Positions 1 through 12,437 of a DNA stretch of 12,437 nucleotides are shown piece by piece. The stretch's first letter is position 1. Every line of letters starts with the position of its first letter. A model generated the notes under the pieces. The model made no database searches. It saw nothing but the letters and a program-made list of their open reading frames with translations, and was not told the origin of the DNA. A program made the translations under genes and the position numbers. This DNA is from a virus, in the UHGV virus genome UHGV-0044338, one strand, 5' to 3'.

Positions 1-232
1 TGGCTGCGGCGATGAATTCAGCATTGGCCTGCTGTTCCATTTGGAAATCTTCATCGAAACCGCTTTCTGGATGCGCTCCTTCAATTCTGCAAATGGGAAT
101 ATATCCAGCAGCCTCGCGATGAATTAGTGCATCATCACCATCAAATCGGCCCTCTCCATATTCGAGCGACCACACACCACACGTTGCTTTCTCTGCTTTT
201 TCACGCAGTGCCTGATAGTCAATCTTGCTCAC
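1..232 (-). CDS. Hypothetical phage protein, N-terminal 77 codons (3' end beyond window)
   Basis: Open frame on minus strand from GTG at 232-230 to window edge, preceded by a consensus SD AAGGAGG (revcomp of 239-245) with 6-nt spacer. Begins VSKIDYQALREKAEKATCGVW. Overlaps the 3' end of the upstream methyltransferase gene by 14 nt in a different frame. Confidence 0.4.
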   Translation of the reverse strand, partial: MSKIDYQALREKAEKATCGVWSLEYGEGRFDGDDALIHREAAGYIPICRIEGAHPESGFDEDFQMEQQANAEFIAAA

Positions 233-713
233 TGGTTGCCTCCTTCATAAAAATAATCCAGTGGGTCTTGTCACCCTTTCCTGTTCGTTGACCGATAACA
301 GGCTTTCTGTCGGTCAGTGCCAATATCTGGCGAACAGGTATTTGCGTTTCATTCCATTTAAAAATCAGAACGCCGTGTGGCCACAACACCCGAAAGGCTT
401 CTTTAAACCCCTGCCGCAAATCATCACGCCAGGTATCTTTATTCAGCCGTCCATATTTCTTTCCCATCCAGGCGTTATCACCAACACGCTCAAGATGCGG
501 AGGGTCGAATACAACCATCGAAAAGGATGCGTCTGCAAATGGTAGTGCACGAAAATCAGCTATCAGGTCAGGACTGATAATCAGGCGTCGTCCATCACAT
601 AATGTGTGCTCTTCCTTTCTGATATCGCTAAATATCGCCCGGTCGTCATTCTTATCGAACCAGAACATGCGACTGCCACAGCACATGTCGAGGATTGCTG
701 CATTTCCAGTCAC
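219..713 (-). CDS. SAM-dependent methyltransferase, probably phage orphan DNA N6-adenine methyltransferase (DPPH catalytic motif)
   Basis: 164-aa ORF with N-terminal glycine-rich SAM-binding-like motif LDMCCGSR followed by VVFDPPH (motif IV-like). GTG start overlaps the stop of the upstream gene (GTGA). An rRNA/other methyltransferase cannot be excluded without a profile search. Confidence 0.6.
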   Translation of the reverse strand: MTGNAAILDMCCGSRMFWFDKNDDRAIFSDIRKEEHTLCDGRRLIISPDLIADFRALPFADASFSMVVFDPPHLERVGDNAWMGKKYGRLNKDTWRDDLRQGFKEAFRVLWPHGVLIFKWNETQIPVRQILALTDRKPVIGQRTGKGDKTHWIIFMKEATSEQD

Positions 714-1138
714 TGGCTGCCTCCTTTGCGAAGCTCTGCGGCGAACTCGTTAAGTGATATGTAGCAATCTCCAAATGTTAACGAACCGCTCGACTGCATA
801 TGTTCCATAGCCATCTCCACGCCCTGCGCCCGTACTTCAGCCAGAAAAGCATCGGTGGCTGGGGTTTTGATTTCGTTAAGCGCATCACTGAATCCACCAC
901 GCTCCATACCTAGCTCTGCTTCGTAATCGGCATCGAATGCAGCGTCTTTGCAGAACTTCTTCAGCTTTGCATTCTCCGCCGCCAGCGCATTAGCACGCAC
1001 CAGTTGCACTTCCAGTTGCGTTGCCAAATCGCTGATCAGCTTTGCCACACTGCGCATATCAACGGCACCACATTCTGCTTTCAGTTCCGAAGCCATCTCA
1101 TGCCCGGCGGCAACTAACCCTTTGATATTACTTTCCAT
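710..1138 (-). CDS. Hypothetical phage protein (coiled-coil rich)
   Basis: 142-aa ORF, ATG start with SD GAGGG upstream, stop overlapping the next gene start. No recognisable catalytic motif. Confidence 0.5.
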   Translation of the reverse strand: MESNIKGLVAAGHEMASELKAECGAVDMRSVAKLISDLATQLEVQLVRANALAAENAKLKKFCKDAAFDADYEAELGMERGGFSDALNEIKTPATDAFLAEVRAQGVEMAMEHMQSSGSLTFGDCYISLNEFAAELRKGGSQ

Positions 1139-1199
1139 CTTTACCCTCGCTTATCCACATAACTTATTGATTACATTGATAACTAAAAAGATCGTCGAT

Positions 1200-1544
1200 T
1201 CAGAACTCTTCGATGTTCCAGCCACCACCTGCTTTCTTTGGTTTAACCGTTACCCCGATGATTCGGAACGGATACTGATCTGCGGCGACTTTGGTTTTCA
1301 CCCTGGCGTCGTCGGTCCAGAAACCTTTCACTTCGTGCAGTTCCATCTCGCCGGTGGCGAGCATCACAGCAAAATCGGGCGTATAGAACGTGTTGTCAGC
1401 TAACCGCAGCTTGATACCCTCGAATCGATACCAGGCGATTTCCCCTGCACGTTTACGCTGCTCAAGGTGCTGGCAATACGCAGATTCTGTTTTGTTCATC
1501 TGGCCTGTTTTGAGCCGACCAAGAGCCTGTATCTGTTTTCTCAT
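1200..1544 (-). CDS. Putative PD-(D/E)xK-type nuclease (VRR-NUC-like) of the nin-like region
   Basis: 114-aa ORF containing YTPDF ... ELHEVKG, resembling a PD-(D/E)xK nuclease core. ATG start with AAGGGG SD. Assignment is motif-based only. Confidence 0.5.
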   Translation of the reverse strand: MRKQIQALGRLKTGQMNKTESAYCQHLEQRKRAGEIAWYRFEGIKLRLADNTFYTPDFAVMLATGEMELHEVKGFWTDDARVKTKVAADQYPFRIIGVTVKPKKAGGGWNIEEF

Positions 1545-1547
1545 GAT

Positions 1548-1624
1548 TTACCCCTTAGGTAATTAAAAACCACATAAGACATGAAATCAATAGACATTAG
1601 AACATTTTATTACCCATCAGGTAA
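1548..1624 (-). promoter_or_regulatory. Sigma70-type promoter (TTGATT-17-TTTAAT on minus strand) flanked by two TTACC-N5-GGTAA operator palindromes; drives the nuclease/nin-like genes
   Basis: Perfect palindromes TTACCccttaGGTAA (1548-1562) and TTACCcatcaGGTAA (1610-1624), centres 62 bp apart. -35 is revcomp of 1585-1590 and -10 is revcomp of 1562-1567; the -10 hexamer shares its last base with the downstream operator. Confidence 0.55.
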
Positions 1625-1633
1625 TCACGTGGG

Positions 1634-1660
1634 CGTAAAAAAATGCGCTATCGCGCTGGT
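1634..1660 (-). terminator. Possible weak intrinsic terminator after the P-like gene
   Basis: Minus-strand RNA reads GCGC-gata-GCGC followed by TTTTTTT. Only a 4-bp GC stem, so weak. Confidence 0.3.
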
Positions 1661-1661
1661 A

Positions 1662-2438
1662 TTACTTGATAAATCCTGCCGCCTTTCCCCGCCTGTATTC
1701 CTCCATCAGCCACTGCGCCGGTGTTATTCCCCCAAGGGTGGCAGCGTTAGGCATACACCCGAAACTTCGCCCTGGTGGATGGTAAACGTCTCTCCCTGTG
1801 TCCGGAGGCGTACTCATGGGTTCTGGCTTTGCCTGTATGCTGATCACCGGATCGGGTATCTGCTGTCCGGAAGCCACCTTTTTCGCCCAATCATCGAGCA
1901 ACCTGCGCGCGTGTTTCTCAACCTCAATCTCGCTAAGCTGGCGCTGATACATTGCACGGCGGGTATCACATACGACCCAGTACATAACCGGATGTCGCCA
2001 CGGGAATCTTTCGGGACCACCAGGATATAAACTTTTTTCCTTGCTGTACCGGTGAAACTCCGCCATCACATCGTCAATGGTGACGCCAAGAACCATCTTG
2101 CTGTCTTTGCACCACTTGATGAATTGCCCAGGCGACGGCCAGAACGGAGATTCACTGGCGCGGGCGTGGCGCATACCAGCGTTAACCTGTTCCATTGTTG
2201 TGATCCCATTCTCCAGAAAGGCAAGCATCCATTGCTTACGGAATTCATTAAGTTTGTTCTGCTCCCTTATGGTCGAAACGCTTGCAGGAAATGCAGCCTG
2301 TAACTGGACAAATAGTTCATTGAAAATTCTAGCAACCTGCTCCTTTTTGCCATTGCTGTCACGCCGCTCTTCATGCACAGCAACACCATGCTCACGTAAG
2401 CGATCGTACTCATTGAGAAGTTCTGGAGTTGATTTCAT
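1662..2438 (-). CDS. Replication protein P (lambda P-like DnaB helicase loader)
   Basis: 258-aa ORF closely resembling lambda P as I recall it, including the block WMLAFLENGITTMEQVNAGMRHAR and PFWPSPGQFIKWC. SD GAAGGGG upstream of ATG; 5' end overlaps the 3' end of the upstream initiator gene, as for lambda O-P. Confidence 0.85.
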   Translation of the reverse strand: MKSTPELLNEYDRLREHGVAVHEERRDSNGKKEQVARIFNELFVQLQAAFPASVSTIREQNKLNEFRKQWMLAFLENGITTMEQVNAGMRHARASESPFWPSPGQFIKWCKDSKMVLGVTIDDVMAEFHRYSKEKSLYPGGPERFPWRHPVMYWVVCDTRRAMYQRQLSEIEVEKHARRLLDDWAKKVASGQQIPDPVISIQAKPEPMSTPPDTGRDVYHPPGRSFGCMPNAATLGGITPAQWLMEEYRRGKAAGFIK

Positions 2439-3240
2439 CCCACACCCCTTCTATCCAGTCAGTGTTATTCCAGTCAAGCTCATCGCTTTTCCCGGCGTTT
2501 TTTGATTTTCCCCTGATATGATTTACGTGCCTGGCGAATTTTTGTTCCCACTGAACCTGCGTGAACACTTTGCCCTCAGCCATCAAGTAATCCCGGAATG
2601 CAGCAAGTTCAGCAGGTGTAAATTCCGGTTCCGGCAGGGCCGTTCCCCACAGCGCAGCACGCCGTCGAAAATCCGGCGACGGATGCCAGCCATCGGTCAT
2701 CGGAAATTTCCCGATGGGTTCACTCAGGCCATCCAGAAATTCAGGTTCAGCCACCTGCAACGGCATACCGTTCGCTTCACTGGTCGGAGCACCATCGCGC
2801 ACGTGCGCTATGTGTGGGGTTTTATATATATCTTCCTCTTCCTCTTCCTCTGGTAACTCCTTTTGTAACGCTGTTGGCGTTACTTTTTGCGTTACTCGTT
2901 TTCGATGCTCTGCCACTCTTCTATTCGTAAGTGCACGTTTTTTCGATGATTCTCCATTATGTCGCTCAAAGTTTGGAAGGATTAGTTTGCCGTCATGATA
3001 AGCAAGCCATCCGACGCTAATGAGGGCGTCAGCAAATCCTGTAATAAAAGCGAGTCTATCAAGTACTCCTTTTGTAACGCTGCCAGCGTTACCGTCTATT
3101 GTTTGCTGGTCAGCCCATGCCCATATACGAACCAGCTTTCCAAGAACAGCATCTGGATCAATACCCAGAATTTCTGCTATCTGAAAAATTTCAGGTTTAT
3201 CAGGAGTGATAACTTCAACCTTAATCCAGCTGCTTGCCAT
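2410..3240 (-). CDS. Replication initiator / replisome organiser with C-terminal DnaT-like (primosomal protein I) domain
   Basis: N-terminus MASSWIKVEV...LVRIWAWADQQ resembles phage replisome-organiser N-domains; acidic EEEEEED linker; C-terminus WHPSPDFRRRAALWGTALPEPEFTPAELAAFRDYLMAEGKVFTQVQWEQKFARH closely matches the E. coli DnaT C-terminal region as recalled. Start placed at ATG 3240-3238 (strong GAGGGG SD) rather than the ORF-track start at 3258. Confidence 0.8.
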   Translation of the reverse strand: MASSWIKVEVITPDKPEIFQIAEILGIDPDAVLGKLVRIWAWADQQTIDGNAGSVTKGVLDRLAFITGFADALISVGWLAYHDGKLILPNFERHNGESSKKRALTNRRVAEHRKRVTQKVTPTALQKELPEEEEEEDIYKTPHIAHVRDGAPTSEANGMPLQVAEPEFLDGLSEPIGKFPMTDGWHPSPDFRRRAALWGTALPEPEFTPAELAAFRDYLMAEGKVFTQVQWEQKFARHVNHIRGKSKNAGKSDELDWNNTDWIEGVWDEINSRTSQ

Positions 3241-3433
3241 AGGTTTCCCCTCTTGCACTCTTTAGTGCACAAGCAAATTCATTACGATGGCGGTTGGCGC
3301 TATTCATTGCACATTCAACACATGTTCCGTTCAGAACATACCTTTCAGAGAGATGGCCGTGACGGCACCGCTTTCCTGTGAAATAGCGATTTAACCCGGC
3401 TTTTGCGGCCTCCATTCTGGTTACTATCTTCAA
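3221..3433 (-). CDS. Small putative zinc-binding protein (CxxxH ... CxxC), function unknown; sits where cII lies in lambda
   Basis: 70-aa ORF with CRHGHLSERYVLNGTCVEC. The track start is TTG at 3433; an alternative ATG is at 3415-3413. Start uncertain. Confidence 0.4.
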   Translation of the reverse strand: MKIVTRMEAAKAGLNRYFTGKRCRHGHLSERYVLNGTCVECAMNSANRHRNEFACALKSARGETYGKQLD

Positions 3434-3545
3434 TTTTTCCGCCCCTTTTTGTTATTGATATTGGCTATTTTGCACAATTGGAAAATTTGATCAACCAGAT
3501 TTGGTTTTTTATTACCTTTGAGGTACGAATAGATATGAAAAGAAA

Positions 3546-3620
3546 CCCCCGGGGGGGGGGGGCGGGGGGGGGGGGGGGGGNNNNNNNNNNAAAAAAAAAA
3601 AAACCCCCGGGGGGGGGGGG
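3546..3620. other. Assembly artefact / unresolved gap (poly-C, poly-G, N10, poly-A, poly-C, poly-G)
   Basis: Mirrored homopolymer blocks around ten Ns. Not a biological repeat; true sequence here is unknown. Confidence 0.9.
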
Positions 3621-3645
3621 TTCTACAGAGGGTTGTAGCTGGATA

Positions 3646-3876
3646 TCATGAGTAGAAGAAGTATGCCAGTTCTGCTTTTGAGCGCAGCCATTGTCTTGTT
3701 TTACAGGCTTTAAAAAGCCCATTCATCAATACTTTACCTGGCATTTTGCGCTTACCTGTTAAGTGAGTCTGGATATAGTGACTCGTCGTTCCGGCTTCCT
3801 GTGCGAAGGCTTCACGCTCATCCGGAGTAAGTGCAAGCCAGTGCTTTTTGAAATCGAAATGTCCGTTATCGCTCAT
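3646..3876 (-). CDS. Cro-like HTH regulator (YdaS/Cro type), first gene of the leftward operon
   Basis: 76-aa ORF with HTH-like segment EREAFAQEAGTTSHYIQTHLTGKR, divergent from the repressor gene across an operator-rich intergenic region, same strand as the replication genes. Confidence 0.7.
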   Translation of the reverse strand: MSDNGHFDFKKHWLALTPDEREAFAQEAGTTSHYIQTHLTGKRKMPGKVLMNGLFKACKTRQWLRSKAELAYFFYS

Positions 3877-3901
3877 AGCTATTGCCTGATATTTATTTCA
3901 G

Positions 3902-3983
3902 ATAATAAATATTCACCCATAAGGTAACAAAAATCAAGGATAGTTACCCATGAGGTGCATTTACCTGTTGGGTAATATTGCTT
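3902..3983. promoter_or_regulatory. Divergent immunity control region with three operator-like sites and candidate divergent promoters
   Basis: Sites TcACCcataaGGTAA (3913-3927), TTACCcatgaGGTgc (3944-3958) and perfect TTACCtgttgGGTAA (3961-3975). Candidate leftward promoter TTGTTA-17-TATTAT (revcomp of 3925-3930 and 3902-3907) overlaps the first site. Candidate rightward -35 TTGCTT (3978-3983) lies 3 bp past the third site, but its -10 is poor. Confidence 0.55.
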
Positions 3984-4030
3984 TAAATTGAATCATCTTC
4001 TGATTCAGATATGAGGCGATTTTCCAGAAA

Positions 4031-4615
4031 ATGAAAAGTATCCAGGACGTCCGCAGGCAAAATCTCAACGACTTGATCGACCGTGAATTCAATGGTGTTC
4101 AGACGCGGATGGCAGAAAAACTTGGAACTCAGGCAAATCTGGTAAACCGCTGGGCTCTTGGCAAAAAGGTTATCGGCGACCAGGTTGCGCGAAAAATTGA
4201 AGCTGCCGCCAATAAACCCCGTAACTGGCTTGATATCGATCGCTCGCTTTCTCAGGAGGGGTTTCAGCCTGTCGGCCCAAGCGACATTGGTCAGCTGGCG
4301 GCTCACAACCTGGAACGCTGGATGAGCGAAAGCCGCGACCTTTCAACTCAGGGAAAACTTCACCGCGCATCCGGCGTCGCCCAGGTGACAATCAGCCGCC
4401 TGTTAAACAATGAGGTCAGCGTTTCCATTTCCACCCTGGAGAATGTTGCATCCGCATTCGGGCGTCACGGCTATGAATTACTGATTCACCCGCACGACCC
4501 TGCGACTATCAACTATGACCGCTCGCGCTACGCATTGTTACCCGAAACAGAGAAGGCAAAGATCGAAAGTTACATTGAATTTGTCATCAGCCAGAACGAA
4601 AAAAACAAACAATAA
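4031..4615 (+). CDS. Prophage repressor (CI-like) with two XRE-type HTH motifs and no S24/LexA-type peptidase domain
   Basis: 194-aa ORF. HTH-like segments QTRMAEKLGTQANLVNRWALGKK (N-terminal) and LHRASGVAQVTISRLLNNEVSVSISTLENVA (central). No G-S-M / Ser-Lys dyad C-terminal domain visible. Divergent from the cro-like gene and followed by a strong terminator. Confidence 0.7.
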   Translation: MKSIQDVRRQNLNDLIDREFNGVQTRMAEKLGTQANLVNRWALGKKVIGDQVARKIEAAANKPRNWLDIDRSLSQEGFQPVGPSDIGQLAAHNLERWMSESRDLSTQGKLHRASGVAQVTISRLLNNEVSVSISTLENVASAFGRHGYELLIHPHDPATINYDRSRYALLPETEKAKIESYIEFVISQNEKNKQ

Positions 4616-4636
4616 AATCATATTTTTCAGTAAGTA

Positions 4637-4661
4637 AGCCGCCTTCTGGCGGCTTTTTTAT
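4637..4661 (+). terminator. Rho-independent terminator downstream of the repressor gene
   Basis: AGCCGCC-ttct-GGCGGCT (7-bp stem) followed by TTTTTTATT. Confidence 0.8.
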
Positions 4662-4671
4662 TGCCTGTGCG

Positions 4672-4750
4672 ATTACCTAATGGGTAATTTTTTTAACTCA
4701 TATCTATTGACATCAAACCAAATACGCATAATTATTACCTCAACGGTAAC
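4672..4750 (+). promoter_or_regulatory. pL-like early promoter (TTGACA-17-AATTAT) flanked by two TTACC-N5-GGTAA operator palindromes
   Basis: Perfect consensus -35 TTGACA (4707-4712) with -10 candidate 4730-4735. Perfect palindromes ATTACCtaatgGGTAAT (4672-4688) and TTACCtcaacGGTAA (4735-4749), centres 62 bp apart; the -10 hexamer shares its last base with the downstream operator. Confidence 0.6.
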
Positions 4751-4768
4751 AGACCGAGGTAACAAGTT

Positions 4769-4921
4769 ATGCAGTGGAAAATCATCAACGGTTGGTACTG
4801 CGTTACTGCATGCGGATTCATGAGCTGGAAGTTCCGCACCTTACAGGAAGGCATCAAGTGGGCTTTCGTCAGCAAAGAAGCTCGCGATGTGGCCAACGAT
4901 AACGAGATATGGGAGGGCTGA
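4769..4921 (+). CDS. Small Trp-rich protein (50 aa), first ORF after the pL-like promoter
   Basis: ATG 4769 with SD GAGGT 8 nt upstream; MQWKIINGWYCVTACGFMSWKFRTLQEGIKWAFVSKEARDVANDNEIWEG; stop 4919-4921. Below the ORF-track size cutoff. Confidence 0.35.
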   Translation: MQWKIINGWYCVTACGFMSWKFRTLQEGIKWAFVSKEARDVANDNEIWEG

Positions 4922-4923
4922 TA

Positions 4924-5223
4924 ATGAACGTTAATCAGCAGAAAAATCTTCAAAAAATCATGCTGGCATTCGACAAGGACTACCGCCTGTCAGAACAGCT
5001 ATATGACCGACAAGTTGAACTGATTGAGAGCATCCGACTTCATCAACTGTCCTCAACTTTCGACGTTGTAACAGGCAAAGGCGTTCGTCAGGAAGTGCTG
5101 GAAGCTGCTAAAGACAGCCCTGAGTTCGAAGAACTGATGGATGCCTACCGGCGCGAGGCAATGGCGATTATCGCCCGCTGGGATCTGGCGGATCAGCTTG
5201 ATGGGCAGAGGGACGCGGCATGA
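4924..5223 (+). CDS. Hypothetical early protein (99 aa)
   Basis: ATG 4924 preceded by SD GGGAGGG with 6-nt spacer (preferred over the track start at 4909, which lies inside the preceding small ORF). Stop overlaps the start of the exonuclease gene (ATGA). Confidence 0.55.
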   Translation: MNVNQQKNLQKIMLAFDKDYRLSEQLYDRQVELIESIRLHQLSSTFDVVTGKGVRQEVLEAAKDSPEFEELMDAYRREAMAIIARWDLADQLDGQRDAA

Positions 5224-6119
5224 TGCGGAACGCTGGAATCATGGATAGAACAAAATACATCGGAGGAAGCGATGTTGCAGGGATTCTTGGAATTAGCCCA
5301 TGGCGCACCCCGCTTGAGGTTTATCTGGATAAGGTCCAGCCACGTGTCAAACCAGTAGACCCAAGCAAGCAGAAAGTTTTCACGCGTGGCCAGCGTATGG
5401 AGCCATACGTAATAGACCTGCTTTCTGAGGAAACAGGGATGGAAATCGTTCATCGCGGAAACCGCTATATCCACCGTGATTACGATTTTATTGCAGCTGA
5501 GATCGATGCAGAAGCAGCGTCAGGCGAGAACATTGAGATCAAAACAGTTAGTCCGTTCAAAGCCAAAGAATGGGGAGAAATCCAGACAGATGCAATTCCT
5601 GTGCATTACACGGCCCAGGCCATGCACGGGTTGATGGTTACAAACAAACAGGTATGCGTTTTCGGTGTGCTTATCGGTGGCGACGACTTCCGAATCTATC
5701 GGGTTGAGCGTGATGAAGAAACTATCCAGGCGATCTTAGAAAAAGAAATCGCTTTCTGGGACCGAGTGAAAAATCTTAACCCGCCGGAAGCTACCAGCGT
5801 AAGCGATGTATCGCTGATGTTTGAGAAAGATGCCGGGACAAGTATCGAGGTTGACGGAAAGGCACTCGCACTATTCAACGATCTACGAGACATGAAGTCA
5901 CGCAGAAAATCACTGGAAGAAGAAATAGCTATATCAGAAGAGAAGCTGAAGATGTACATGCAAGAGCACTCAGTCCTGACCCTGGACGGAAAGCCGCTCT
6001 GCACATGGAAATCTCAGATCAGCAACAGATTCGACCAGAAGCTATTCCAGTCAGTACACCCTGAGTTATTCGAAAAATTCAAAACAACAACGACACAACG
6101 CGTCTTCAGAATGAAGTAA
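5220..6119 (+). CDS. YqaJ-like phage recombination exonuclease (lambda Exo-type fold)
   Basis: 299-aa ORF with N-terminal YIGGSDVAGILGISPWRTPLEVY typical of YqaJ-type exonucleases, immediately upstream of RecT. Confidence 0.8.
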   Translation: MMRNAGIMDRTKYIGGSDVAGILGISPWRTPLEVYLDKVQPRVKPVDPSKQKVFTRGQRMEPYVIDLLSEETGMEIVHRGNRYIHRDYDFIAAEIDAEAASGENIEIKTVSPFKAKEWGEIQTDAIPVHYTAQAMHGLMVTNKQVCVFGVLIGGDDFRIYRVERDEETIQAILEKEIAFWDRVKNLNPPEATSVSDVSLMFEKDAGTSIEVDGKALALFNDLRDMKSRRKSLEEEIAISEEKLKMYMQEHSVLTLDGKPLCTWKSQISNRFDQKLFQSVHPELFEKFKTTTTQRVFRMK

Positions 6120-6128
6120 GGAGAAAAA

Positions 6129-7151
6129 ATGTCTATCAATGCACTTAAGGCAGCGGCTACCGGTAACCAAGTTGCACATCATAATGAGAAACCAACAACT
6201 CTGGCCGGACTTCTGGCAGACCCAAAAATAAAAGCCCAGATGGCTTTGGCACTTCCAAAGCACATGACAGCAGACCGTCTGGCGCGCATAGCAACCACAG
6301 AGATCCGAAAGGTTCCAAAACTTGCATCATGCGACCAAGCCAGCTTCCTGGGGGCAATTATGCAATGTGCCCAATTGGGTCTTGAACCAGGTGGAGCTCT
6401 TGGACACGCTTACCTGATACCGTTCGACAAACGCCAGAAAGTAAATGGAAGATGGGAAACCGTATCTACAGAAGCACAGCTGATTATCGGCTATCGCGGA
6501 ATGATTGACCTTGCCCGCCGCTCTGGGCAGATCCTGAGTATCTCGGCTCGTACCGTACATACAAACGACAAATTCAGCTACTCATACGGCCTGGAAGAAA
6601 CGCTCGAGCATTTACCTTGCGAAACAGGTGACCGCGGAGAATTAACGCACGTTTACGCCGTTGCACGACTGAAAGATGGCGGAGTCCAATTTGAAGTTAT
6701 GAGCCGGGCAGACGTTGAGAAAGTTCGTGCACTGAGCAAAGCCGGTAGCAGTGGCCCATGGGTTGATCACTTCGATGAGATGGCTAAAAAAACAGTAATT
6801 CGCCGACTGTTCAAATATCTTCCTGTTTCTATTGAGATGCAGAAGGCTGTTGTTATGGATGAGCGCGCTGAAGCTGGACTTAGCCAAGATAACGCAGCTG
6901 TTATCACTGGTGAATATTCCGTAGTTGACGATGAGCGTCAACACCTATCGCCAATTTCAGATTCAGAACGAGAAGAAGCTCGAGAATATATCATCGCGAT
7001 ACTTAATAGCCTGGATCCATCTGCTGAAGATGCAAAAACGATGTTCAAGCGCGCTGAAAATGAAATTAACACCATGGCTGAAAAGCTCGGTGATGAATAT
7101 CACCAAAAATTCATGATGACGCTTAACGATATGCGTCCAGAATTCGAGTAA
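6129..7151 (+). CDS. recT: RecT-family single-strand annealing recombinase
   Basis: 340-aa ORF with RecT-family hallmarks as recalled (e.g. LIPF ... GYRG segment), strong SD AAGGAG 6 nt before ATG, paired with an upstream exonuclease gene. Confidence 0.85.
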   Translation: MSINALKAAATGNQVAHHNEKPTTLAGLLADPKIKAQMALALPKHMTADRLARIATTEIRKVPKLASCDQASFLGAIMQCAQLGLEPGGALGHAYLIPFDKRQKVNGRWETVSTEAQLIIGYRGMIDLARRSGQILSISARTVHTNDKFSYSYGLEETLEHLPCETGDRGELTHVYAVARLKDGGVQFEVMSRADVEKVRALSKAGSSGPWVDHFDEMAKKTVIRRLFKYLPVSIEMQKAVVMDERAEAGLSQDNAAVITGEYSVVDDERQHLSPISDSEREEAREYIIAILNSLDPSAEDAKTMFKRAENEINTMAEKLGDEYHQKFMMTLNDMRPEFE

Positions 7152-7200
7152 CCACCACCGCGGCGCCACGCGCGCCGCACTGCAACCAAGAGAGGTATTT

Positions 7201-7449
7201 ATGAAAGGTGCATTAGGTAAGAAGGAACTCCTGGCGGTGGTGCCACTGTCATGGAGCACTATCGACCGCATGGAGCGCACAGGGGAATTTCCTAAGCGCT
7301 GGTATATCACTGACAAACGCTGCGCATGGAACCGTGATGAAGTTGAGCGTTGGCTTGATGAACGTCAGGCAGCAAGCCCGGCAGAGTTCCAGGGTAAAAA
7401 GCCTCCTGTTCAGCAACGTGTATATCGTCCTGTGAGCAACGCTGCATGA
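7201..7449 (+). CDS. AlpA-family HTH regulator / putative excisionase
   Basis: 82-aa ORF; LLAVVPLSWSTIDRMERTGEFPKRWYITDKRCAWNRDEVERWLDER matches the AlpA/Xis-type winged-helix pattern; SD AGAGG upstream. Confidence 0.7.
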   Translation: MKGALGKKELLAVVPLSWSTIDRMERTGEFPKRWYITDKRCAWNRDEVERWLDERQAASPAEFQGKKPPVQQRVYRPVSNAA

Positions 7450-7558
7450 GTGTGCTGCTAAGGCACTGGAGCAAATGGTCAGGATGGTACTTATTCCTGG
7501 CCTCTGTTTCAGCATGGCTTTATCTGCTGGCATTAATTTTCAGAGAGGGTTGGATTAA

Positions 7559-7858
7559 GTGAGAAAGTTAAGCCGACTTGAAAAATATCACATGAACAAG
7601 GTTTCAATGCGCAGTCCGTCAAAGATTGTCGCCGTTACTCCTGCGGCGATAGAGATCGAAAAACGCGCGATTGAAAGAGAGAAAAAAGGGCAGTTCCGCA
7701 TTGCCGCCCACCTTTGGCTTCAGTGTATGGATGTTGCTTCTGGTGATGTTGAGCGTGCAAGGATCGCGGTTCGCAGGGACCAATGTATCACAAAAGGTAA
7801 CGGCCTTCGCCGTGGCGACTATAGCGGTATAGGATGTTGCGGGGTAGTTTATGACTAA
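7559..7858 (+). CDS. Hypothetical protein; start uncertain (GTG 7559, ATG 7592 or ATG 7604)
   Basis: ORF whose stop overlaps the start of the MT-A70 methyltransferase gene by 8 nt. No recognisable motif. Confidence 0.45.
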   Translation: MRKLSRLEKYHMNKVSMRSPSKIVAVTPAAIEIEKRAIEREKKGQFRIAAHLWLQCMDVASGDVERARIAVRRDQCITKGNGLRRGDYSGIGCCGVVYD

Positions 7859-8501
7859 GAAATACACACTAATCTATGCAGATCCACCCTGGGTATACCG
7901 GGACAAAGCCGCAGATGGTAATCGCGGTGCCGGTTTTAAATATCCGGTTATGAGTGTGATGGATATCTGCCGCCTTCCTGTGTGGGATTTGGCCGATGAA
8001 AACTGTCTGTTGGCAATGTGGTGGGTGCCAACACAACCACTCGAAGCGCTAAAAGTTGTTGAAGCCTGGGGATTCCGTCTGATGACCATGAAGGGCTTCA
8101 CGTGGATAAAATGTGGTAGTCGACAACCAGATAAACTGGTTATGGGTATGGGACACATGACTCGCGCCAATAGTGAAGATTGCCTGTTTGCAGTAAAGGG
8201 AAAACTACCTCCGCGCATTAATGCAGGGATCGTTCAGTCATTTACCGCACCGCGGCTTGAGCATTCAAGAAAACCAGATGTCGTTCGTGAAAAACTTGTG
8301 CAATTGTTAGGCGATGTTTCTCGCATTGAACTGTTCGCCCGCCAGTCGTCTCATGGCTTCGATGTTTGGGGTAATCAGTGCAAAGACCCGGCGGTGCAAC
8401 TACACCCAGGATACGCGTTGGATATTGGCGGATTAACAAATGCATTCAGCAATTCTCCGCTTTCACCAACAGACAACCAAGGCCGGGAGCGTGCAGCATG
8501 A
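7851..8501 (+). CDS. MT-A70-family DNA N6-adenine methyltransferase (orphan, phage-type)
   Basis: 216-aa ORF with LIYADPPW catalytic motif near the N-terminus and the later ELFAR ... DVWGN block typical of MT-A70 enzymes. Confidence 0.8.
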
Positions 8502-9157
8502 ACCTATATCAACGCATCAATGGCGCTGACTGGTGCAATATCTTCGTCGTCGGCGATCTGCATGGGTGCTACACGCTGCTGATGAACGAACTCGACAAAG
8601 TTTCATTCGACCCGGCGCGCGATTTGCTTATTTCCGTTGGTGACCTTGTTGACCGCGGCGCTGAAAACGTCGAATGCCTAGATTTGATTACTATGCCGTG
8701 GTTCCGAGCTGTTCGTGGCAACCATGAGCAGATGATGCTGGATGCACTGGTCAACGGCGGAAATTTCGGACATTGGATGTCAAACGGCGGTGGATGGTGG
8801 CACCAACTTGATTCTGAGCAGGATGTGCAACTCAAATACCTTCTGCCAAAGATTACCAACCTCCCGATGATTATCGAACTGGTTACCGGCAATAAGAAGG
8901 TCGTCATCTGCCACGCAGACTACCCGCACAACGAATACGCATTCAATAAGCCAGTACCAGAAGAAATGGTGATATGGAATCGTGAGCGGGTTAGCGACGC
9001 GCAGGACGGTATTGTCTCGGAGATAACCGGTGCCGATTTGTTCATCTTCGGTCATACGCCAGCACATCACCCACTGGTGTATGCAAACCAGATGTACATC
9101 GACACAGGGGCAGTGTTCTGCGGAAATCTGACGCTTACCAAAGTCCAAGAAAGATAG
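8498..9157 (+). CDS. Serine/threonine protein phosphatase, lambda PPase-like (calcineurin-type metallophosphoesterase)
   Basis: Metallophosphatase motifs GDLHG, GDLVDRG and GNHE; overall resemblance to lambda ORF221 phosphatase as recalled. Start at ATG 8498 ([12 protein letters not shown]), overlapping the methyltransferase stop (ATGA); SD GGGAG upstream. Confidence 0.85.
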
Positions 9158-9159
9158 AA

Positions 9160-10332
9160 TTATTTATTACTGTCTTCCATCCACTTCTCAAACTTCGACG
9201 GGGAGAACGGAATCAGATCCGTATGCTCCCCGTTAATCCAGGAATCAATCATATCGGCCCACTGCTGCAACATGTAGGCGCGCTGTCTGGCGTATTCCGC
9301 TTTGTTATATACGGCGCGCACACCTTTCTGCTCATGTGCCAGAGCCTTTTCAATCCAGTCTGAAGGATAACCAGCCTCATGCAACAACGTACTGGCTGTA
9401 CGGCGCATATCGTGTACGGTGAAGTCCTGAATATGCTCACCATCTTCATTTATTATTTTCACCGTTCTGTCGATCAGAGAGTTCAGCGCGGCATTAGATA
9501 ATGGCTTCCGGAAGTTGTAACGACCAGGAACCAGATATTCACTTCCACCAGCGCACATCTGCAACCCGACCAATATATCCTGTGCCTGTTTAGGCAGGTA
9601 AATAACGTGCGCCCGGCTTCCCTTCATGCGGTCTGAAGGAATTGTCCATGTCCATTTTTTAAAATCTATTTCGTCCCACGTTGCATTGGTGAATTCGCCT
9701 TTACGAACCATAGTGATAAGCACCAGCTTTAAAGCCATTTTCATAGTACCCATAGCACCAATGGCATCCAGCGTGCGGAAGAACAGGCCAATTTCTTCTG
9801 GTGTCAGTGTTCGCTCTCGTGGTTTAAATATGGCGATAGACGAAGGTTTAATGTCAGCCGCAGGATTAAATAAACCATGACCACGGTCATTGGCGTGACG
9901 GTATACGCTGCTGATGATCTCCCTGGCCTGTACTGCTGTTGCACGGCCACCGCGTTCGACAATCCGGTCACACAAATCACGAACCATCGATGTGGTAATT
10001 TCAGCCATCATTTTGTTGCCAAGAACCGGAAGTATGTCACGGTCGATCACCGCCTGTTTCATTGCGCGGGTACTGTCAGCCAGGATGACGTGTTTCATAT
10101 AACTGTCGGTATGTACCGCAAACGTCTCGGCACCACGAATCTTTTTGATACCGTCACGTTTAGCCGCGGCCGGTGACTGGCCTGCTTTAAGCAGTTTCTT
10201 TGCAGCAATCAGTTCTTCCCGCGCTTCTGCCAGGCTGATACCGTCACGCCCATACTGCCCTATTACCAGTGTTTCGCGGCGACCGTTGATACGGTAGTCA
10301 TAGCGAAACGAGACCGTGCCTGACGTAAGCAC
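9160..10332 (-). CDS. Tyrosine recombinase / phage integrase (IntS/P4-like); frame as given starts at GTG 10332, but the conserved N-terminus extends upstream to GTG 10416 and is interrupted by TAA at 10396-10398
   Basis: 390-aa ORF with N-terminal arm-binding-like region (FRYDYRINGRRETL) and C-terminal catalytic region ending RAVYNKAEYARQRAYMLQQWADMID, collinear with E. coli IntS-type integrases as recalled. Upstream in-frame sequence encodes (M)LTDTK*KTLKPQDKLYKVSDRDGLYVAV. Confidence 0.85.
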   Translation of the reverse strand: MLTSGTVSFRYDYRINGRRETLVIGQYGRDGISLAEAREELIAAKKLLKAGQSPAAAKRDGIKKIRGAETFAVHTDSYMKHVILADSTRAMKQAVIDRDILPVLGNKMMAEITTSMVRDLCDRIVERGGRATAVQAREIISSVYRHANDRGHGLFNPAADIKPSSIAIFKPRERTLTPEEIGLFFRTLDAIGAMGTMKMALKLVLITMVRKGEFTNATWDEIDFKKWTWTIPSDRMKGSRAHVIYLPKQAQDILVGLQMCAGGSEYLVPGRYNFRKPLSNAALNSLIDRTVKIINEDGEHIQDFTVHDMRRTASTLLHEAGYPSDWIEKALAHEQKGVRAVYNKAEYARQRAYMLQQWADMIDSWINGEHTDLIPFSPSKFEKWMEDSNK

Positions 10333-10444
10333 AGCTACATACAGCCCGTCACGATCGGAGACCTTGTACAGTTTGTCCTGCGGCTTGAGGGTTTTTTATT
10401 TTGTATCGGTAAGCACAATTCACCCGTATAGAAACCATTTTCAT

Positions 10445-10480
10445 GACGGTATGAGAGTATACCTTTAAGGTAATACCGTC
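10445..10480. other. Nested inverted repeats in the int-guaA spacer; candidate attachment-site or recombinase-binding region
   Basis: GACGGTA (10445-10451) and TACCGTC (10474-10480) flank TATACCtttaaGGTAAT (10458-10474). No tRNA gene is present here. Confidence 0.25.
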
Positions 10481-10530
10481 ACCTGTACCGCCGAAAAATA
10501 TGGTGTAGAGTGAATAGAAATGAATACATA

Positions 10531-10560
10531 AAAACAAAAACCCTCTGTAAAAACAGAGGG
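10531..10560 (-). terminator. Rho-independent terminator of guaA (guaBA operon)
   Basis: Minus-strand RNA: CCCTCTG-ttttta-CAGAGGG followed by TTTTTGTTTTT, 50-80 nt after the guaA stop. Confidence 0.8.
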
Positions 10561-10608
10561 TTAAATTAGTATCTGAATAGGAATGAGTTGCTATGAGTTA
10601 GCTGTTAA

Positions 10609-12186
10609 TCATTCCCACTCAATAGTCGCTGGCGGCTTGCCGCTGATGTCATACACCACGCGGGAAATACCGTTCACTTCATTGATAATACGGTTGGAAA
10701 CGCGGCCGAGGAAGTCGTACGGCAGATGTGCCCAGTGTGCGGTCATAAAGTCGATGGTTTCGACAGCACGCAGAGAGACAACCCAGTCATACTTACGACC
10801 ATCGCCCATTACGCCAACGGAACGTACTGGCAGGAAGACGGTGAACGCCTGGCTGACTTTGTCGTACAGGTCCGCTTTACGCAGTTCTTCAATGAAGATG
10901 GCGTCAGCACGGCGCAGCAGGTCACAATACTCTTTCTTCACTTCTCCCAGAACACGAACGCCAAGGCCTGGTCCCGGGAACGGGTGACGGTACAACATGT
11001 CATACGGTAGGCCCAGCTCCAGACCAATCTTACGCACTTCGTCTTTGAACAGCTCTTTCAGCGGTTCAACCAGGCCCATCTTCATCTCTTTCGGCAGGCC
11101 ACCCACGTTGTGGTGAGATTTGATGACGTGTGCTTTACCGGTTGCAGAAGCAGCAGATTCGATAACGTCAGGGTAGATGGTGCCCTGCGCCAGCCACTTC
11201 ACGTCTTCCAGTTTCAGCGCTTCTTCATCGAATACTTCAACGAAAACGCGACCGATAATTTTACGTTTTGCTTCCGGATCGTTTTCGCCAGCCAGCGCTG
11301 ACAAGAAGCGATCTTCTGCCGGTACGTGAACAATGTTCAGACCAAAGTGATCGCCAAACATATCCAGAACCTGCTCTGCTTCGTTGAGACGCAGCAGGCC
11401 GTTGTCGACGAATACGCAAGTCAGGTTTTTACCGATAGCGCGGTGCAACAGCATTGCGGTAACGGAGGAATCCACGCCACCAGAGAGGCCGAGGATGACT
11501 TTATCGTCGCCCACTTGCTCGCGGATGCGGGCTACAGCGTCGTCGATAATTTTCGCTGGCGTCCACAGGGCTTCACACTGGCAGATATCACGCACAAAAC
11601 GCTCCAGCATGCGCATACCCTGGCGGGTGTGAGTCACTTCCGGGTGGAACTGTACGCCATAGAAGCGTTTTTCTTCGTTGGCCATGATGGCAAACGGGCA
11701 GCTTTCGGTGCTGGCTACGGTGACGAAGTCGGACGGGATAGCGGTAACTTTATCGCCGTGGCTCATCCAGACGTCCAGCAGCGGTTTACCATCTGCGGTC
11801 AGCGCATCTTCGATACCGCGAACCAGTGCGCTGTCGTTTACGACTTCAACCTGCGCGTAGCCAAATTCACGTTCGTTAGAGGCTTCAACGTGACCGCCCA
11901 ACTGCATTGCCATGGTCTGCATGCCATAGCAAACGCCGAATACCGGTACGCCTGCTTCAAAGACATACTGCGGCGCACGCGGGCTGTTTTCTTCGGTGGT
12001 GCTTTCCGGGCCGCCGGAAAGAATAATGCCGCTTGGATTGAAGTCACGAATTTGTGCTTCTGTCACATCCCACGCCCACAGTTCGCAGTAAACACCCAGC
12101 TCACGCACGCGGCGCGCAACTAGTTGAGTGTACTGAGAACCGAAGTCCAGAATGAGGATGCGATGCTTATGAATGTTTTCCGTCAT
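10609..12186 (-). CDS. guaA: GMP synthase (glutamine-hydrolysing)
   Basis: 525-aa ORF; N-terminal glutamine amidotransferase domain and ATP-pyrophosphatase motif SGGVDSS; matches E. coli GuaA as recalled along its full length. Confidence 0.97.
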
Positions 12187-12242
12187 TGACGCTTATTCCG
12201 AGGCAAGTGAAACAGATAATATAAATCGCCCGACATGAAGTC

Positions 12243-12345
12243 NNNNNNNNNNNNNNNNNNNNNNNNNNNNNNNNNNNNNNNNNNNNNNNNAAAAAAAAAA
12301 AAAAAAAAAAAAAAAAGAAGGGGGCGGGGGGGGGGGGGGGGGGGG
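12243..12345. other. Assembly artefact / unresolved gap (N48, poly-A, poly-G) inside the guaB-guaA intergenic region
   Basis: 48 Ns followed by long A and G homopolymers; native intergenic sequence is not represented. Confidence 0.9.
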
Positions 12346-12352
12346 AAGAGAA

Positions 12353-12437
12353 TCAGGAGCCCAGACGGTAGTTCGGGGACTCTTTAGTAATGGTCACGTC
12401 GTGAACGTGGCTTTCCTGAATGCCCGCACCGCTGATA
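12353..12437 (-). CDS. guaB: IMP dehydrogenase, C-terminal 27 codons plus stop (5' part beyond window)
   Basis: Minus-strand translation ISGAGIQESHVHDVTITKESPNYRLGS then TGA (12353-12355); matches the GuaB C-terminus as recalled; expected position upstream of guaA. Confidence 0.85.
   Translation of the reverse strand, partial: ISGAGIQESHVHDVTITKESPNYRLGS

Follow-up and report, generated by a model that had tools for sequence, protein, structure and literature searches.

The closest described relatives of the prophage analysed here are the Uetakevirus phages phiV10, vB_EcoP_ZX5, vB_EcoP_PAS61 and TL-2011b, with which its integrase gene (int) and the region upstream share 98–98.7% nucleotide identity. 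phiV10 uses the same GTG start for its integrase, which is annotated as cd00801 INT_P4, and has the PerC-like, MT-A70 methyltransferase and AlpA-like neighbours that we find in our sequence. A Ser/Thr phosphatase gene adjoins int here and in PAS61, whereas a DUF1382 gene occupies that place in phiV10. The Salmonella phage epsilon15 has a 17-bp att core at the 3′ end of guaA that is identical to the one described below, and the same 17-mer forms attP/attB of phiV10, epsilon15 and vB_EcoP_ZX5 (PMC9782041). Compared with these Uetakevirus integrases, the gene studied here alone carries a TAA at codon 7 and a threonine at codon 9.

The prophage and the draft scaffold that carries it

The window, that is, the whole stretch of 12,437 nt that we analysed, corresponds to positions 1–12437 of scaffold GG774226.1 from Escherichia coli MS 185-1 (GCA_000164575.1), a 2010 Human Microbiome Project (HMP) draft assembly that is rich in gaps. 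To judge from its gene content and its junction with the host, the window covers attL and the early genes of a phiV10/epsilon15-like (Uetakevirus) prophage that is inserted at the 3′ end of guaA. Its genes encode the integrase, the phosphatase, MT-A70, PerC-like and AlpA-like proteins, RecT, YqaJ, a repressor, a DnaT-like protein and a P-like replication protein, and prophages next to guaA that share this gene order align with 92% of the window at 98.4% identity. The relatives run on into terminase and portal genes. Because our scaffold starts within the prophage, in an Ead/Ea22-like gene at window position 1, the prophage is split across scaffolds, and attR and the structural half lie outside the window. 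The features of the attachment region and the likely partner of the integrase are listed here.

10609–12186, minus strand: guaA (GMP synthase), the host gene at whose 3′ end the prophage integrates
10607–10623, minus strand: att core ATTGAGTGGGAATGATT, comprising the last guaA codons and the stop; the prophage–host junction
10539–10562, minus strand: phage-borne intrinsic terminator, now 3′ of guaA; an annotated terminator in phiV10
10444–10481, no strand assigned: inverted TGACGGTAT pair between the att core and the int start, candidate arm-type sites
10444–10452 (plus), 10473–10481 (minus), 10238–10246 (minus), 10148–10156 (minus), 9896–9904 (plus): copies of TGACGGTAT
7201–7449, plus strand: AlpA-family small DNA-binding protein, a likely excisionase partner; annotated as an AlpA regulator in relatives, phiV10 included

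The core ATTGAGTGGGAATGATT is common to the guaA 3′ end of K-12 and to phiV10 attP, and in the alignment similarity to each of them stops at the core borders. The int start at 10416 lies 191 nt downstream of the core, as expected of a Uetakevirus attL (about 190 bp) and in agreement with PMC9782041. Five copies of TGACGGTAT occur in the window where 0.03 would be expected, and phiV10 attP has the motif on its other arm too; these motifs are candidate arm-type Int binding sites, for the very domain that the stop would remove. Three of the copies fall within int itself, and two of these three encode RDGI.

The integrase is present in around 550 of 5,426 complete E. coli genomes and, among the matches listed, is located between guaA and the Ser/Thr phosphatase gene. 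In CP195580.1 (GCA_051546155.1, approximately positions 1780–2000), a prophage with the identical 418-aa integrase adjoins aroL-yaiA rather than guaA; the junction there, ...CAGGTGGGAATGATT, agrees with the att core at 12 of 17 bases, and the location is apparently a secondary attachment site. On a 37,628-nt contig from JGI metagenome 3300007747, spanin, endolysin and holin genes come after int in place of guaA; this is the circular or attP form of the phage genome and shows that phage of this type occurs free in a metagenome.

Two places in the window bear the marks of the assembly procedure.

3543–3621, no strand assigned: assembly artefact, an N run between poly-C/G/A junk, with a GC hairpin lost
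12243–12344, no strand assigned: assembly artefact, 48 N followed by poly-A/poly-G junk, between guaA and guaB

At the first of these the window reads ...CCCCCGGGGGGGGGGGGCGGGG...NNNNNNNNNNAAAAAAAAAAAAACCCCCGGGG..., where relatives have the contiguous sequence gaccgccgggtggcggtc with its 18-nt GC hairpin. At the second, window position 12242 joins 12341 directly in all eight relatives compared, making this a false gap as well. A sibling HMP assembly (IMG 648276659) breaks at both of the same places and contains the same poly-G junk. Taken from these alignments, both junk-padded gaps are pipeline artefacts. Over scaffold positions 1–19157, the differences private to MS 185-1 amount to bases 10391, 10397 and 2585, plus the junk around the two gaps. 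Position 2585, the only private base in the 19 kb outside the integrase gene, is A in MS 185-1 and C in four of four relatives, and it changes W219 to L in the DnaT-like replication protein (2410–3240, minus strand). The deposited annotation also gives longer products than calls made on identical DNA, for guaB (window 12353 onward; 503 vs 488 aa) and for the small genes at 4909–5223 and 7592–7858 (104 vs 99 and 88 vs 83 aa); these are start-codon choices of the 2010 annotation, with the sequences unchanged.

The integrase frame and its interruption

The integrase is encoded on the minus strand, with the following parts.

9160–10416, minus strand: full integrase reading frame, with 418 codons before the stop in intact relatives but a break at codon 7 in this sequence
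10414–10416, minus strand: integrase GTG start, which is the CDS start of WP_059333259.1, WP_032277130.1 and phiV10 YP_512286.1
10396–10398, minus strand: premature TAA at codon 7, TTA (Leu) in relatives; private base 10397
10390–10392, minus strand: codon 9, ACC (Thr) in place of AAC (Asn) in relatives; private base 10391, plus strand GAGG[T>G]
10330–10332, minus strand: first in-frame restart GTG, codon 29; start of the deposited 390-aa EFJ57341.1
10156–10413, minus strand: arm-type DNA-binding domain, residues 2–87; the restart product is without the first 28 residues
9292–9807, minus strand: catalytic tyrosine-recombinase domain, residues 204–375, intact (Pfam)

Read in this direction, the sequence begins GTG, CTT ACC GAT ACA AAA, meets TAA at 10398–10396, and continues AAA ACC CTC AAG CCG to the natural stop at 9162–9160, the translation being V-LTDTK-*-KTLKPQDKLYKVSDRDGLYVAV-LTSG.... 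Intact homologues are annotated over exactly 9160–10416, and 418-aa homologues starting at the same GTG are found in E. coli 214-4 and 2013C-4538 and in phage phiV10. An in-frame TGA lies two codons upstream of GTG 10416, and the solved arm domains in PDB 3JU0 and 3JTZ align from residue 2, with the pattern LTDxK[V/I][K/R][N/T]. Since both the annotated starts and the arm-domain structures begin at GTG 10416 or residue 2, with the TGA just upstream, the TAA falls inside the true gene; we therefore rejected a mis-called start upstream of the true one. By this reading the deposited sequence truly carries a stop in frame at codon 7, within a conserved N-terminus, exactly where the original prediction had placed it (plus-strand 10396–10398).

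With the two codons repaired, the protein matches PF13356 Arm-DNA-bind_3 (72.2 bits, cut-off 27), PF22022 Phage_int_M (46.3 bits) and PF00589 Phage_integrase (70.9 bits). All three matches exceed their cut-offs and together form the three-domain architecture of the P4 type (INT_P4): an arm domain, a SAM-like core-binding domain and a catalytic domain. Alignment to lambda Int (1Z19) pairs VRKGE with QRVGD, HDMRR with HELRS and LAH with LGH, placing the arginine of VRKGE, the histidine and arginine of HDMRR and the histidine of LAHE opposite lambda R212, H308, R311 and H333; the catalytic tyrosine would then be the one in AVYNK, just beyond the printed alignment. These domains identify the gene product as a tyrosine integrase of the P4/IntS type, whose N-terminus carries an arm-binding domain. 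The earlier identification as IntS-type agrees with the Pfam domains, the INT_P4 annotation of phiV10 and the alignment to 3JU0 and 3JTZ. One attribute of INT_P4, a frame uninterrupted from the conserved N-terminus, is missing from the deposited sequence and present in all relatives.

The longest open reading frame that remains is 9160–10332, encoding 390 aa from a GTG that follows the stop after 64 nt. The sequence before GTG 10332 shows nothing like a Shine-Dalgarno motif, and a sigma-70 promoter scan upstream of int returned no candidate. The Arm-DNA-bind_3 match shrinks from profile positions 1–81 (72 bits) in the repaired protein to 29–81 (41 bits) in the restart product, and the missing profile positions 1–28 confirm the forecast that a restart at GTG 10332 would cost about 28 residues. 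Scaffold GG774226.1 itself is the sole contig on which this 390-aa product (EFJ57341.1) occurs.

The two-base change and its likely origin

Intact relatives read ACA AAA TTA AAA AAC CTC (T K L K N L) at this site. On the coding strand the window departs from them at two positions six bases apart: T>A at 10397 turns TTA into TAA, and A>C at 10391 turns AAC into ACC (Asn9Thr). On the plus strand, GAGG-TTTTTT-AA-TTTT in relatives becomes GAGG-G-TTTTTT-A-TTTT in the window, the net effect being a T6 run moved by one position, which is equivalent to +G/-A on the plus strand or -T/+C at the A6 run of the coding strand. The T6-A-T4 tract of the original prediction is thus present, as G-T6-A-T4 at 10391–10402. 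The codon proposed to underlie the stop fared differently: instead of an isoleucine codon (ATA) altered by a swap of two adjacent bases, all close homologues have TTA (Leu) at codon 7, in the context TTA-AAA-AAC, so we rejected an ancestral ATA. Approximately 535 genomes of E. coli have AAA-TTA-AAA-AAC, as do at least 120 viral contigs. Because two separate substitutions six nucleotides apart on an otherwise identical background are implausible (nine clone-mates are identical over kilobases save these two bases), we also rejected independent substitutions, and changes 10391 and 10397 arose in one event.

The change is private to one assembly. Among 539 E. coli records that match a 120-nt query at the site, none carries either base (none has 0 or 1 mismatch); since no record has fewer than two mismatches, neither change occurs in this set, alone or together. 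In IMG/VR, a 34-mer containing the TAA matches a single contig. This contig is byte-identical to window 3591–12242 and therefore is the same assembly, so we rejected an independent TAA allele there; the corresponding intact 34-mer matches at least 120 contigs. JGI metagenomes contain no match to the TAA 34-mer. Neither allele turned up among GTDB species representatives, which is uninformative because the E. coli representative is presumably without the prophage. At the protein level, the repaired Leu7/Asn9 sequence is an exact match to a protein on 890 contigs, and the repaired Leu7/Thr9 sequence is absent from approximately 15 billion proteins.

A further comparison is with nine independent assemblies that otherwise match the MS 185-1 scaffold exactly over 5–19 kb, six from Logan (SRR6106432, ERR4034853, ERR10497911, ERR13652546, ERR13652547 and ERR13652759) and three from GenBank (GCA_964049385.1, GCA_052855405.1 and GCA_021702795.1). 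All nine read the intact codons, with A at plus-strand 10397 where the window has T, and each has 0–2 private SNPs over the same 19 kb. The int gene differs from that of strain 214-4 at 18 positions, 15 of them synonymous. Apart from codons 7 and 9, the integrase protein is identical to the common intact protein, with no decay, which led us to reject an old, decaying pseudogene; if the lesion is real, this lack of decay would mean that it can only be of very recent origin. As a pseudogene test, we looked for the lesion in independent data: it is repeated in none of the nine clone-mates, none of the 539 E. coli records and no other IMG/VR or JGI contig.

The reads behind the scaffold appear to have been assembled a second time. 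The W219L protein variant that results from base 2585 has one other place on record, Logan contig SRR089446_679, which is 100% identical to window 81–3510 (3,430 nt), 2585A included. Because this contig shares the private base of the scaffold, SRR089446 is very probably the MS 185-1 read set, independently assembled; base 2585, which the Logan assembly reproduces, is by the same comparison read-supported. No truncated integrase from SRR089446, an indexed run, is on record, and the 390-aa product is known from GenBank only. Of 13 contigs with the identical phosphatase, 12 encode the 418-aa integrase beside it, and the 390-aa form is confined to the GenBank scaffold; this comparison was restricted to the MT-A70 and int neighbours, and its bearing on SRR089446 is indirect.

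These results lead us to regard a base-calling or assembly error in the MS 185-1 draft, and not the genotype of the strain, as the probable source of the TAA. We favour an artefact because the change is private, has the signature of a shifted run, sits in an error-prone context and shares its window with gross artefacts, and because no truncated int is on record from the independently assembled reads. The true sequence is then probably ...ACA AAA TTA AAA AAC CTC..., encoding an ordinary intact 418-aa integrase, and we infer that the reads do not have the TAA as their majority call. A transient lag of one cycle in sequencing-by-synthesis could displace the T6 run by one position; alternatively, paired over- and under-calls in two short runs beside the homopolymer could leave the same pattern. 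The strongest systematic Illumina error motif is GG followed by a T miscalled as G (PMC3295828). Base 10391 is a T after GG read as G, and base 10397 is the first base after the T6 run, read as T, so that the site matches both error types of Meacham et al. 2011 (PMC3295828), GGT>GGG and homopolymer boundaries. However, such errors are usually strand-specific and affect a minority of reads, so an error in the consensus would need low or biased coverage, and GGT>GGG is an Illumina motif where the platform of the MS 185-1 assembly may differ. Of the three outcomes offered by the original prediction, an inactivated integrase, an N-terminally truncated one that locks the prophage in place, or a homopolymer sequencing error, the third is thus the one that we favour.

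A real change is unlikely in our assessment. It would have to be one very recent slippage and realignment at the A6 run (-T/+C) in the MS 185-1 lineage, and with it the prophage would be locked at guaA. The stop does stand in the deposited record, 1.8 kb away from the nearest gap, and private base 2585, reproduced from the reads, implies that the consensus tracks the reads elsewhere. Clone-mates with 0–2 private SNPs over 19 kb make one or two real private events unsurprising, and the sibling assembly (IMG 648276659), unlike MS 185-1, read the identical local context correctly. Another nonsense allele of the same integrase, E68* in ERR13331261 (described below), and the removal of profile positions 1–28 of the arm domain, for which a functional effect is predicted by analogy with lambda Int, also fit a real loss. 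Against this, a two-base complex mutation belongs to a rare class, none of the other data sets that we searched contains either base, gross assembly artefacts occur within 2–7 kb of the site, no truncated integrase is on record from SRR089446, and 12 of the 13 phosphatase-bearing contigs described above have the 418-aa gene.

That the stop is real and tolerated, either through a functional 390-aa restart product or through readthrough or frameshifting at AAA-TAA-A to give full-length Int, is very improbable: the in-frame GTG downstream and the intact core-binding and catalytic domains would allow it, but the N-terminus is uninterrupted in every relative, with LTDxK[LVI] conserved into solved structures, the GTG at 10332 has no Shine-Dalgarno sequence before it, TAA is an efficient terminator in E. 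coli, and an allele shared by no lineage gives no sign of selection. Programmed frameshifting or readthrough was rejected specifically, as the codon is a sense codon in relatives and a ribosome that shifted by +1 or -1 at the stop would read on in a frame that never rejoins the gene. In summary, the organism most likely does not have this stop, and the finding would be an ordinary one in either case.

Consequences and comparison with known integrases

If the stop were real, translation would end after six residues, and the sole restart at GTG 10332 would yield 390 aa in which the arm-binding domain could not fold. By analogy with lambda Int, this product could still bind and cleave core sites but would not assemble an arm-bridged intasome, and the prophage would be unable to excise or reintegrate and would remain locked at guaA. 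In a prophage that is otherwise fully intact, this would represent the very first step of domestication: it could no longer excise, while all its remaining genes would still match those of clone-mates that can be induced. Such a loss of excision, confined to one strain and to a phage family that is well known, would be ordinary and of interest only to users of that strain. The truncated EFJ57341.1 (390 aa), probably not a biological product, has spread from the HMP draft into protein databases and IMG/VR. Calls of pseudogenes or of a “locked prophage” made from such drafts should thus be checked against clone-mates or reads.

A second interrupted copy of the integrase is found in ERR13331261_1958, a Logan contig at 98.3% identity from a different strain, where GAA>TAA produces E68* at the window equivalent of 10215. 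The gene caller restarts at an internal ATG to give 312 aa, a product that is on record only from this unrelated sample. As in the window, int is interrupted in its arm domain beside guaA; unlike the two-base change in the window, E68* is a single-base change at another codon in another strain, seen at assembly level only. It may be either an independent knockout or another error.

The predicted loss of arm–core bridging draws on the established biochemistry of lambda Int without its N-domain. The C-terminal fragment of lambda Int (1Z1B, 1P7D) resembles the 390-aa restart product in that it keeps the core-binding and catalytic domains and loses arm binding. The arm domain of the present integrase, a protein known from its sequence, is Arm-DNA-bind_3 (DUF4102), P4-like as in 3JU0 and 3JTZ, whereas that of lambda Int is of another type.
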